Source: Eledone cirrhosa (lineage: Eukaryota). Taken from it: 64,000 bases of DNA. The DNA lies in the NCBI GenBank assembly GCA_964016885.1, contig OZ024741.1, positions 348,502,001-348,566,000 of the forward strand. Reading direction: 5' to 3'. Made by a program: the position numbers and the translations under genes. Each line of letters begins with the position of its first letter. The first letter of the stretch is position 1. Under the pieces are notes generated by a model. The model had not been told where the DNA came from. It did no database searches and saw only the letters and a list, made by a program, of their open reading frames with translations. Below, in pieces: positions 1,865-63,163 of this stretch.

Positions 1865-2298
1865 CTTTAAGTCGTTTGGAAGCCTCGACAATGCAAATGG
1901 GTAAATCTCATGCGTGGTGTGTATAAGATGTTTGAGATGTGTAGAATGAAGGGAAGAGTATAAAGGATAAAAATAAAAATAACAACACAAGAGAGAGTTA
2001 CTTTGGGAGAGATTTAATAGTCCCTATATGTTTCGGATTCACATCCATCAACTGGGTTTTTTTTTCGGGGTGGGGGAAAAGGTTGTCTGTCGGACAAGTC
2101 CGGAACGCGATATTCAAAACAACAAACAGCGAAAGACGCGTTCCGGACTTTTCAAAGTACACCCACTTACATCTCTCTCTCCACCACCTGACCTTGTTAC
2201 CCGGAGATTTACCCATTTGCATTGTCGAGGCTTCCAAACGACTTAAAGTTATTTACTTATTGTTCCACAATGCTTCAAGCAAACTTCAATACTCTCTT
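1865..2298. mobile_element. TA-bounded fold-back element (Penelope pLTR-like)
   Basis: 45-bp perfect inverted repeat 1865-1909 / 2204-2248, a ~50-bp unpaired tail to 2298, and (TA)n on both sides. Degenerate hammerhead-like motif on the minus strand at 2022-2056 (CC CAGTTGA T GGAT GTGA ATCC GAAA CATATA GG). Confidence 0.65.
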
Positions 2299-2626
2299 AT
2301 ATATATATATATATATATATATATATATATATATATATATATATATATATATATATATATATATATAGTAATAATAATAAATTTGAAGACTAACATCCAA
2401 AGAGGGCCCGATAAGGATAAATATATATCAAATATATAACAACTGTAGAGCAAATATTGATTAAAATAACAGATTAAAGTTTAAGCAAAGAATCGCTGCT
2501 TTCACGTTTAACGGGATCTTCTGAAACTAACAAAGTCAATCTGTGAACGCAGAAGTGAATATTTAAAAAAACGCTGCAACCGGAGGAAGACAAGATGACG
2601 ATACTTTGGTTCGTGGAATCGTTCCC

Positions 2627-2885
2627 TGGCAAAGAACGGGAAAAAACGAATATAATACGTCATTATTTGGAGCGGTGAAAAAAAAATTGCACGCAAAGAC
2701 AAAACCACGTTTATGGTATAAAAGAAGTCGTACACTAATATTCTATTAGGCGGTTTATAGAGAAGTTCTCAGGCAAGGAACGGAAAAAACGAAGATAATA
2801 CGTCATATGTGGAGCACGGAGAACAATTGCACACAAAGACAAAACCACGTAAATGGTATAACTGAAGTTGTAGACTAAAATTCTA
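2627..2885 (+). repeat. Diverged ~145-bp tandem duplication
   Basis: GGCAA.GAACGG.AAAAAACGAA.ATAATACGTCAT...GACAAAACCACGT..ATGGTATAA..GAAGT.GTA.ACTAA.ATTCTA occurs at 2627-2745 and at 2772-2885. Confidence 0.85.
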
Positions 2886-3149
2886 ACTAGGAAACCGAAT
2901 GATTCTCGGCTTCAGAGTTAAGAATAAAGTAAATAAAATACAGAGGTAATTGAGATAAATAAATACATACACGCATCCATATACGTACATACACAAGCAT
3001 ATGCAAAACACTCGACATAGGTATACAAATACACGCACGTACACAAAAAAAAAACCTCAAAAAAAAACGCAAGCACAAACCCCACGCAACGCCTGTACCC
3101 GCACGCATACGAATGTATACACCAAATACACATAAAAATATATATATAT

Positions 3150-3720
3150 ATGTGCGTTTATACATAAAGAAAAATATATATATATGTGTGTGTGTTTGCG
3201 TGTATACATAAATATATATATATATATATATGTGTGTGTGTGCCTGTGCGTGTATACATAAAAAGATATATATATGTATGTGCGTGTGCGTTTATACATA
3301 AAAAATATATATATATGTGTGTGAGCGTGTATACATAAAAACAAATATATATATATATATGTGTGTGCGTGTATACCTAAACAAATATATATATATGTGT
3401 GGGTGTGTGTATACATAAAATATATATATATATATATGTGTGTGTGTGTGTGTGCGTGTATACATAAAAAAATATATATATATATATATTTGTGTTTGTG
3501 CGTGTATACATAAAATATATATATATATATATATGTGTGTGTGTGTGTGCGTGTATACATAAATATATATATAGATATGTGTGTGTGCGTGTATACATAA
3601 ACAAAATATATATACATATGTGTGTGTGCGTGTATACATAAACAAAAAAATATATATATAGATATATGTGTGTGTGTACGTGTATACATAATATATATAT
3701 ATATATGTGTGTGTGTGTGT
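3150..3720. repeat. Compound minisatellite, unit ~35-50 bp: CGTGTATACATAAAA-(TA)n-(TG)n
   Basis: The core GTGTATACATAAA recurs about 14 times with variable TA and TG blocks between cores. Confidence 0.9.
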
Positions 3721-4029
3721 GAGCGTGTCTTCAGGAGATATCATTTTTTTCACGTTCTTTGCCAGGGAACGTTTCCACGAACCAGAGATTCGTCTTCCTG
3801 TCTTCCTCCGATTGCAGCGTTTTTTGAAATATCCACTTCTGCGTTTACAGATTGACTTTGTTAGTTTCAGAAGATCCCGTTAAGGGTGAAAGCAGTGATT
3901 CTTTGCTTTAACTTTAATCTGTTATTTTAATATATATATATATGTATATATATATATATATATATGTATATATATATATATATATATATATGTATATATA
4001 TATATATATATATATATATATATATATAT

Positions 4030-4170
4030 AAAGAAAAAAGGATGAAATCGAAAATGCAACTGGAGTCTTATTTAAAAATATATATATATATATATTTGGT
4101 TCCTTTACCGGTTTCACAGTTCTTCTGCTTTTCAAAAGTAGAGTTGAGATGGAGGGACTGTGGTTTTTCT
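4030..4170 (-). mobile_element. Family B Penelope-like terminus (single arm) in (TA)n
   Basis: Matches the left arm of the 61405-61742 element, including the antisense hammerhead-like motif (CCTTTACCGGTTTCACAGTTCTTCTGCTTTTCAAAAG). Confidence 0.8.
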
Positions 4171-61225: not shown

Positions 61226-61404
61226 TATATATATATATATATAAATTAAGTCTGGCAAACCATATCGCTGTAGTTAGTATTTTTTACCCTAGCGAACCAG
61301 GTCCTTACAATTAGGGCACATGTATGTTTATATTAGTGTTCATCTCTCTTGTATATTCAATTATATACATATATATATATATATATATATATATATATAT
61401 ATAT

Positions 61405-61742
61405 AGAAAAAGAGATGAAATCGAAAATGCAACTGGAGTCTTACTTTTCTTTTTAAATATATATATTTATTTGGTTCCTTTACGGTTTCGCAGTTCTTCT
61501 GCTTTTCAAAAGTAGAGTTGAGACGGAGGGTCTTTGGCTTTTCTCACAGACCTTCCATCTCAACTCTACTTTTGAAAAGCAGAAGAACTGCGAAACCGGT
61601 AAAGGAACCAAATAAATATATATATTTAAAGAAAAAATAAAACTCGAGTTGCATTTTCGATTTCATCTCTTTTTCTTTATACTTTCACTCGTGTAGGACA
61701 CCTCGGTTATTTTTCAATTTGTAAAAAAAACCTCACTTTCTA
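61405..61742. mobile_element. Family B fold-back element (arms ~61405-61533 / ~61548-61675) plus tail
   Basis: Reverse-complement arms with TA on both flanks. Confidence 0.92.
61569..61604 (+). ncRNA. Variant (U3-A8) minimal hammerhead motif
   Basis: CTT TTGAAAA GCAG AAGAA CTGC GAAA CCGG T A AAG. Confidence 0.7.
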
Positions 61743-62484
61743 ATATATATATATATATATATATATATATATATAGAGAGAGAGAGAGAGAGAGAGAGAG
61801 AGAGAGAGATATGAATGTATGTATAAGTATGAATGCCTGTACATCTTCGGCTAGTTATATCGTAAGTAAATTAAATTACGTACAATCTTCAAAGAAGAAT
61901 GTTGAACATTTTTTTTTTGTCATGTCCGTAGTAAATTTCTTTATATTACACTACTTTAACCGCAAGCAATGCAATAGTATCCCAGCGTCACAATTCACTA
62001 AATCAATACAATATTAACTCTAAGAAAAGAACTTACAATGAACAACGTTAAACTGTTGCAACAACGCTTCACTCTGTCAATGGAGCAGTGTATAGGAACG
62101 GATCCCAAAAGTGGAGTATTTTGCCACAAGTAATGTTAATTTTAAGACGGTATTTGATGCAATATAAGACGCACTTCACTATACCACCTAATGACATAAT
62201 GGTTAATGGTTTAACACGACATATTAAATTGTTAGGTTAAGAAATTTCTTTCAATAGTTAAGAAATAAAGGTATCAGTATTTACTCATGAACAAACGCGC
62301 AGGCATACATAAACACCATTATGCACATATACTGAAACACGTGCAGGCCCAAATGTTTGTATATATATATATATATATATATATATATATATATATATAT
62401 ATATATATATATATATATATATATAAATATATATATATATATATTTATATTCATATGTATATATATATATCTATATATCTATAT

Positions 62485-62744
62485 CCCAAATTAAGATAAA
62501 TTAAATGAATTTAATCCAAATCGAAATTGTGGGTGTCATGCCATAATGGCGTGCGCCATATCGCCCGGAAATAAGCTCAAAGATAGGTCCGAGCATTTTA
62601 TAATAACTAGAAATTTATTAACATGTATAAACAGGAATAATCACAGGAGATAATTTTTACTAGCTATGCGTGGTTACACGCTTGTAAAAATTATCTCGTG
62701 TGATTATTCATGTTTATACATGTTAATAAATTTCTAGTTATTAT
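62485..62744. mobile_element. Fold-back element (arms 62599-62660 / 62684-62744) plus tail
   Basis: ~61-bp inverted arms, TA-bounded; no ribozyme motif seen. Confidence 0.8.
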
Positions 62745-62909
62745 ATATATATATATATATATATATATATATATATATATATATATATATATATATATAT
62801 ATATATATATATATATATATATATGTATGTATATATATATATACATATATATATATAGAGAGAGAGAGATAAATATACACGGGTGTGTATGATTGTGTAT
62901 AGAAGATTA

Positions 62910-63163
62910 TATTAATAAAAGGAATTCCAACTTTGTCTGATTTACTCGTTTTATTTACAATCATTTAACAGCCGAAAATTGCAAACTTGACTGTCACCAC
63001 ATATTATGAACCTGAATATTGCGAAAGCATGAAAGTACTTGTTCAATTAACACTTAACATTTAATATTCTACCATACTATTTCATTCTAATACCATTATA
63101 CATGTTAAAGGATTGTAAATAAAACGAGTAAATCAGACAAAGTTGGAATTCCTTTTAGTAATA
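62910..63163 (+). mobile_element. Solo terminus of the 59580-61225 Penelope with inverted 5' arm
   Basis: 62978-63163 duplicates 61043-61225. 62910-62970 is the reverse complement of 63103-63163. Confidence 0.9.

Follow-up and report, generated by a model that had tools for sequence, protein, structure and literature searches.

We analysed a 64,000-nucleotide stretch of the genome of Eledone cirrhosa (GenBank assembly GCA_964016885.1, contig OZ024741.1, positions 348,502,001 to 348,566,000 of the forward strand; hereafter the window), in which twelve short fold-back elements embedded in TA repeats had been singled out from the sequence alone. The original prediction assigned them to about 10 sequence families, found hammerhead ribozyme cores in about half of them, and proposed that they are non-coding derivatives of Penelope-like elements (PLEs) that propagate as inverted units and form a new retrozyme-like class. 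The host genome is 3.0 Gb in size and microsatellite-rich, and inverted self-matches in the window were searched with microsatellites masked at a cut-off of E<1e-4. The twelve elements turned out to represent twelve repeat families (A to L), and a local inverted self-match was detected in 11 of them. TA runs bound every element and each has one unpaired tail of 49-132 nt, bearing out the fold-back architecture that the elements had been said to share; at 17189 the tail is reduced to a stub because the second arm has been cut short.

The copy of family A, a PLE fold-back with internal deletions at 1865-2297 (+), has outer arms at 1865-1909 and 2204-2248, a 49-nt tail and no hammerhead core that we could find in the family; what had been taken for a 294-bp spacer between its arms (1910-2203) is largely family A sequence, most of it inverted. 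At 16274-16578 (+) lies an old fold-back related to family B, whose arms are weak (about 70% identical over 55 nt) and both match family B at 74-84%, with a minus-strand hammerhead core at 16428. Fold-backs of the Hydra type, as judged by the motifs described below, belong to family C (17189-17327, -; core on the minus strand at 17259), family D (35934-36361, +; cores at 36039 (-) and 36159 (+), 97-nt tail), family E (39155-39537, -; variant C3-A4 core, 88-nt tail on the left), family F (a long element at 46098-47496, -; left-hand tail of 132 nt, no convincing core), family G (47506-48014, +; cores at 47608 (-) and 47818 (+), tail of about 94 nt) and family H (53768-54270, -; cores at 53920 (-) and 54185 (+), left-hand tail of 68 nt). 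The mini fold-back of family I (54283-54476, +) contains only the 3' half of a hammerhead. Family J, with endonuclease motifs of the Neptune type, has a U3-A8 core in both arms and a 65-nt tail (61400-61742, +). The fold-back of family K (62468-62745, -; 118-nt tail) is part of a non-coding 531-nt unit and stops short of its hammerhead-like motif, and that of family L (62875-63165, -) consists of a tailed arm at 62875-62970 and a tail-less arm at 62974-63165.

A strict scan for type I hammerheads gave 5 matches in the window, compared with 0.17 on average for 30 Markov-shuffled windows, and Rfam at its gathering score gave no hammerhead match in the window. The canonical CUGANGA core is present in the arms of five of the twelve elements, close to the proportion first claimed, while the pairing of cores on both strands holds for only three (those placed at 35935, 47509 and 53762). 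Across copies, core motifs were found in 10 of the 12 families, the motif of family K being imperfect, and inspection of families A and F revealed no convincing core. Counting overlapping loci, family E has a C3-A4 core in 68 of 68 pattern matches including its full-length copy, family J a U3-A8 core in 31 of 32, family K a U3-A8-like core in 21 of 22, and family L the sequence CUGAAGA in 36 of 40 copies. In the family E core, for example at 39300-39330 (-), A replaces U at position 4. The 5' ends of short family I copies fall inside stem II. By eye, no dominant pile-up of 5' ends was seen at the hammerhead cleavage site, which makes cleaved RNA a less likely template.

To find the origin of the families each element was used for a genome-wide search and the copies were then followed upstream. 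Open reading frame (ORF) links were made by tblastn with proteins taken from the copy loci, since Pfam misses proteins of the Hydra type: no Pfam match was obtained for the E and H proteins, and the family A protein matched RVT_1 and, weakly, GIY-YIG. Eleven of the twelve families (D, G, E, F, A, H, J, B, C, I and L) lead upstream on the same strand to a PLE reverse transcriptase (RT) or GIY-YIG endonuclease coding region, the exception being family K. The postulated PLE origin is thus confirmed for all families but one, and the idea of a non-coding, retrozyme-like class is not supported for these eleven and survives for K alone. The parent of family L lies within the window itself, where a long copy at 60188-61227 (+) contains a broken Neptune-type endonuclease (60188-60702), a 3' untranslated region (UTR) and a TATA box, and carries the same arm as that at 62974-63165. 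Two loci hold complete copies in which the ORF is flanked by pseudo-long terminal repeats (pLTRs): L321, a full-length copy of family E, and L322, a full-length family A copy encoding RT and GIY-YIG. In both of these the tail-less site is where the 3' pLTR stops, and the tail continues into the beginning of the ORF, as it also does at L323 (family H, 5' side only).

Eight families (C, D, E, F, G, H, I and M, the last of which is described below) show the endonuclease motifs of the Hydra clade, namely a CxCX5C linker, no CCHH, CxxC and CxH. Families B, J and L have a CX2-5CxxC linker and CCHH in the C-terminal endonuclease, as in the Neptune type. By these motifs we assign the former to Hydra and the latter to Neptune. 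Family A, with CCHH and a reduced linker, fits neither clade firmly. N-terminal motifs are RWK and DKT in family H and RWR and DKT in family E.

We then compared 162 head-to-head pairs from 10 families (in family F no junction pairs turned up within 60 nt, and K was treated on its own). Within each family the two outer ends are constant and the inner ends vary: 151 of the 162 pairs combine a tailed with a tail-less end, three are long+long, none is short+short, and eight are of other kinds. Tails measure about 46 nt in A, 56 in B, 72 in C, 97 in D, 87 in E, 132 in F, 93 in G, 69 in H, 76 in I, 65 in J, 118 in K and 37 in L. Fold points vary from copy to copy, with 134 distinct per-family lengths among the 151 pairs and differing junction sequences, so that inversion junctions are not fixed within families and the supposed propagation as inverted units found no support. 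Nor did we find fixed terminal inverted repeats at both ends, given the variable arms, the one-sided tail and the many solo copies; many copies are without an inverted arm in the nearest 1.5 kb. The alternative that the original prediction had itself raised, that the elements are 5'-truncated PLE insertions with copy-specific fold points and arms tracing to coding PLEs, is in fact what the data show for 11 of the 12 families. Lengths are nonetheless alike in some families (D 414-442, I 175-205, L 411-424) and palindromic junctions are common. Of 137 pairs, 93 are flanked by TA runs on both sides and 133 on one side or more; none of these 137 cases offered a clean empty site as a check of whether TA runs pre-exist or are added. 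The arms of a pair agree at 320 of 368 polymorphic positions, compared with 3685 of 6986 (53%) between pairs. In 54 of the 162 pairs it is the tail-less arm that extends further 5', in 23 the tailed arm, and among bystander pairs with both arms scorable the figures are 20 and 5 (p=0.004).

In several families the position of the inner ends points to a common 5' boundary. We defined a pile-up as arm 5' ends falling within 7 nt of one anchor position per family. In family D, 16 of 55 unbiased arms end at the anchor and three in the next 30 nt upstream; the corresponding figures at the anchor are 22 of 44 overall and 6 of 15 unbiased arms in family J, and 27 of 38 and 8 of 13 in family L. In these three families the initiator-like pile-up site, which we take as the probable transcription start, has a TATA box 30-32 nt upstream; in the family D fold-back at 35934-36361 this site would be the beginning of both arms. 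In family I, 51 of 76 arms end at the anchor, a TATA-like word occurs 30-32 nt upstream and the site lies within stem II of the hammerhead, for which stalling at the hairpin is an alternative explanation. Measured from the reference 3' ends, the pile-up positions are 265 nt in D, 213 in J, 188 in L and 137 in I. Among 16 pairs of family L, the junctions CAAC-T-GTTG and CAAC-A-GTTG occur three times each, and both types are expected if two run-off ends anneal over a central mismatch. Many arms are therefore likely to be run-off copies of the whole RNA leader and not 3'-end pieces truncated at random. Short copies of this kind have no TATA box and thus would probably be unable to start a new round. 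Palindromic junctions confounded a by-eye check for an extra G at the run-off ends, as would result from copying of the cap. We found no paper stating such a start-site pile-up of arm 5' ends in a search that omitted most subscription papers, older Penelope reviews and supplements.

Family K differs in organization. All examined copies are stretches of one circularly permuted unit of 531-565 nt, which is non-coding: when the unit is doubled, its longest stop-free frame has 70 codons. The K run crosses the unit junction in 28 of 30 loci; the longest run is 1510 nt and arrays reach up to 2.8 turns. Of 55 run ends (one locus counted twice), 24 fall at unit position 200-207 and 16 at 318-322, and 13 of 19 distinct inverted pairs combine an end at 200-207 with an end at 318-338. 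Copies vary in their inversion point. Their 5' ends are spread round the unit without pile-up, in a search that required one arm to span 322-531, as would be expected for a template that has no 5' end. The hammerhead-like motif has a conserved U3-A8 core, stem II, GAAA and ATATAT palindrome; its stem I is weak and not contiguous. No ORF was shared beside K in 50 loci, some of them overlapping, and no coding parent was found in the loci examined, where a top-40 ranking favours K itself and a diverged parent could escape.

A link between K and the Hydra-type families is a RCTC..GAGY hairpin that begins 4-11 nt into the tail. D, E, F, G, H, I and K have this hairpin and A, B, J and L do not, and 0.5-2.6% of shuffled tails match it. 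It was not matched in the tails of the 50064 and 24341 elements described below, the tail starts of which may be misplaced. Because K has two fixed ends as PLEs do and has the tail hairpin in common with the Hydra families, it is likely mobilized by PLE machinery. From sequence, K behaves as a non-LTR retrozyme moved by Hydra-type machinery would, making it a candidate member of that group, and it is likely copied from circular or tandem RNA. We found no paper on head-to-head retrozyme insertions, in a search that omitted most subscription papers and supplements. A tandem array of family E at L328 (G000:C2:273375860-273378302) is built of the pLTR plus the 125 nt that follow the tail and repeats about every 407 bp; it has five full and two partial units, ends at the tail-less site and is possibly a retrozyme in the making.

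Taken together these results suggest, with a probability of about 0.85, that the elements are short head-to-head pLTR insertions of endonuclease-bearing PLEs, likely made anew each time and likely dead on arrival; the data give no support to fold-backs moving as units. Within this PLE origin we somewhat favour a twin-priming route. The RT-endonuclease of the element would cut both strands of a (TA)n run and prime two complementary DNAs (cDNAs) on the two strands of the cut run; each cDNA would start at a fixed initiation site of its own, and both would probably come from the same RNA. The tail would then be the stretch between the two sites. The cDNAs would stop early or run off the 5' end of the RNA at the transcription start, and their ends would anneal by a few bases and be filled in; paired outward-facing hammerheads would be a by-product of a leader copied twice. 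Family K would be a non-coding passenger, probably using Hydra-type machinery on a circular or multimeric RNA. That both parts hold, with most fold-backs being twin "strong-stop" leader copies and K a circular-RNA passenger that Hydra-clade machinery recognizes by the tail hairpin and inserts through rolling reverse transcription from a like pair of sites, is a tentative proposal to which we give slightly less than an even chance.

The nearest competing account keeps the PLE origin and derives the inverted arm from self-priming (snap-back) of one strand, the tail being left by endonuclease resolution. It draws on published proposals of self-priming (PMC3846280) and of endonuclease resolution of the tail (PMC8557442), and would account for the variants shared by the arms of a pair and for the frequent palindromic junctions. 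A snapped-back strand, however, cannot add a tail that is absent from its template, as the pairs with the further-reaching tail-less arm would demand. An asymmetric cut is then required to yield no short+short and only three long+long pairs, the family L junctions would need a 1-nt loop, and the tail is already explained by initiation at two sites in vitro (PMC11167929). Snap-back with asymmetric endonuclease resolution is possible, and we regard self-priming overall as unlikely.

Much less probable still is the reading first proposed, in which non-coding PLE derivatives would be transcribed and re-inserted as ready-made fold-back units of a new retrozyme-like class. The similar lengths within families, the repeated occurrence of two family L junction types, and the non-coding family K, for which the loci examined showed no parent, all fit such units. 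Yet eleven families have coding parents, fold points vary by copy even in K, and in family L the tail may be on either arm relative to the junction type; the like lengths are also explained by the common 5' boundary downstream of a TATA box that is missing from the short copies. As for miniature inverted-repeat transposable elements (MITEs) or foldback DNA transposons, which would have terminal inverted repeats and insert at TA target sites, the inverted arms and TA flanks are what one would expect of them, but the arm length varies per copy, one end has an unpaired tail, solo copies abound and the arms are the ends of elements encoding RT and GIY-YIG, leaving this origin with next to no probability. 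The fold-back observation is therefore real and a new class of elements is not supported.

Several points weigh against the twin-priming scheme or the PLE assignments behind it. The pile-up anchors were picked post hoc, TATA spacing playing no part in the choice, and the transcription starts are predictions from the sequence alone. Families G (19 of 47 arms) and E (12 of 45 unbiased arms) pile up without a TATA box, none of 16 bystander arms of family H ends at the anchor, and family A has little pile-up (6 of 39). In own-query loci the reach bias is reversed (tail-less arm further in 10, tailed in 17) and the pooled figures are 30 versus 22 (p=0.33). The six family L junctions of two identical types could in principle reflect copied fold-backs, and the similarity of paired arms could come from gene conversion after insertion. 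The coding link of family I runs via a sister subfamily 74-78% identical to it, and the clade names reflect motifs and not a phylogeny.

To see how common such insertions are, 39 arbitrarily placed 10-kb stretches (389,800 bases) were sampled for 13 families and contained 37 insertions and 11 head-to-head pairs. This corresponds to about 95 insertions and 28 pairs per Mb and extrapolates to roughly 3x10^5 insertions and 8x10^4 pairs in the genome. The window is several-fold denser in these families than the sampled stretches; the kind of elements it holds is not unusual.

The window contains further copies of this sort. A fold-back architecture enclosing coding DNA lies at 49984-52397 (+), with inverted arms at 50064-50406 and 52039-52397, a core at 52371 and a Hydra-type GIY-YIG fragment (50736-51171) between the arms. 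A second family E head-to-head pair with a microsatellite-rich middle spans 2368-3937 (-), and a minimal one at 46002-46084 (-) is made of a 45-nt tail piece and a 41-nt tail-less arm. Family M, of the Hydra type, is present as a fold-back at 59575-59829 (-) with a long-stem-II hammerhead (core 59764), and a direct copy of family B at 54584-55064 (+) has a tail and a hammerhead core at 54795. A hammerhead-bearing end related to family D lies at 24341-24553 (-; core 24544), and at locus L008 a family D copy is adjoined by a fold-back of a family similar to this end. Solo copies of another hammerhead-bearing family were seen at 21948-22125, 49630-49810 and 17424-17503 (-), with cores at 22063 and 49748; the sequence at about 22200-24000, G-rich and skewed between the strands, may represent its 3' UTR. 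Elsewhere in the genome, two family H copies (G000:C345:27798-28157 and G000:C4:207916661-207917155) have a fold centre of 8-11 tandem copies of a 45-bp piece, possibly from repeated RT slippage, and three nearly identical family E inverted units spaced by about 1.84 kb (L099-L101, G000:C2:327996714-328000611) are likely a local tandem duplication after insertion.

Among the other repeats of the window is a near-complete non-LTR retrotransposon at 31838-34893 (+), in three frames, with an RT (Pfam RVT_1, 1.6e-22), a zinc-binding region and a C-terminus that presumably resembles a restriction-like endonuclease. Other RT fragments of the long interspersed nuclear element type (RVT_1, 3.5e-8) lie at 5068-6700 (+) and 18817-19387 as two diverged copies in opposite orientation. 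A repeat resembling short interspersed nuclear elements, roughly 120-200 bp long and also found within PLE 3' UTRs at other loci, has more than 10 copies in the window, with stretches at 4690-5020, 7053-7990, 9170-9374, 11463-11579, 14399-15278, 30104-31067 and 37538-37667.

From a practical point of view these elements should be annotated as PLEs and not as MITEs or simple repeats. The genome provides a large natural dataset for the unsolved mechanism of PLE insertion, for which our reading predicts one long and one short end per insertion and a 5' boundary at the transcription start; the tail hairpin may mark the binding site of the RT. If the strong-stop proposal is true, tens of thousands of insertions would map PLE start and initiation sites genome-wide, and K would be junction-level evidence for the proposed mobilization of animal retrozymes by PLEs. 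Family K also offers a defined substrate for asking whether a PLE RT copies a retrozyme-like circular RNA.

The main features of the elements are already published, including the inverted copy with a tail, insertion into (TA)n and pairs of hammerheads on opposite strands that stem from truncated PLEs, so that our families extend a known type of PLE insertion; the start-site pile-up and family K, neither of which we found in print, are two modest additions that we infer. Schostak et al. 2008 (PMC2377424) described inverted repeats of copy-dependent size, and Arkhipova et al. 2013 (PMC3846280) inverted pLTRs, a tail, pLTRs that contain a TATA box and initiator, solo pLTRs and a model based on self-priming. 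Insertions of endonuclease-bearing PLEs were reported by Craig et al. 2021 (PMC8557442) with an adjacent inverted 5'-truncated copy and a tail of 30-40 bp, and (TA)n insertion for the Hydra clade. The elements studied here agree with these accounts in the head-to-head inverted copy of variable length, the one-ended tail, the (TA)n target, the pLTR that runs into the ORF start and its TATA box and initiator-like motif. They differ in that tails measure 37-133 nt versus the 30-40 nt cited, that most insertions are the leader region alone, and that 5' ends pile up at the presumed start, a feature we did not find in the published text seen. With the Hydra clade in particular (PMC8557442) they share the CxCX5C linker without CCHH, CxxC and CxH around a conserved E and N, DKT and RWK/RWR in families E and H, and TA insertion, a likeness by motif only, whereas the RCTC..GAGY tail hairpin was not found in what we saw of the published description.

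For the ribozymes, the relevant text of Cervera and de la Pena 2014 (PMC4209133) describes dual minimal hammerheads on opposite strands, 100-700 bp apart and ascribed to truncated PLEs, and a U3-A8 core. Our families match in their minimal cores, palindromic stem III, U3-A8 variant and opposite-strand pairs, and depart in the invariant C3-A4 core of family E and in the short family I copies that begin inside stem II. Both Cervera and de la Pena 2020 (PMC7229834) and the preprint of Li et al. 2026 (bioRxiv 10.64898/2026.07.22.740005) proposed that PLEs mobilize animal retrozymes. Like animal non-LTR retrozymes, K and the family E array at L328 are non-coding, head-to-tail and furnished with a hammerhead or hammerhead-like motif. 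Unlike them, K has a unit of 531-565 nt (170-400 nt cited), a motif with a weak stem I, short arrays, and PLE-type twin ends and inversions that the published accounts, as far as seen, do not mention. A biochemical parallel is the Poseidon element PAc of Anolis, which belongs to another clade and for which the inverted copy was not modelled in the text seen (Frangieh et al. 2024, PMC11167929). According to that text, PAc in vitro cuts and extends both strands of AT-rich DNA, hammerhead cleavage is not needed, and two internal initiation sites bound the tail; double-strand cleavage at AT-rich DNA and a tail bounded by two initiation sites are likewise what we propose for the Eledone elements.

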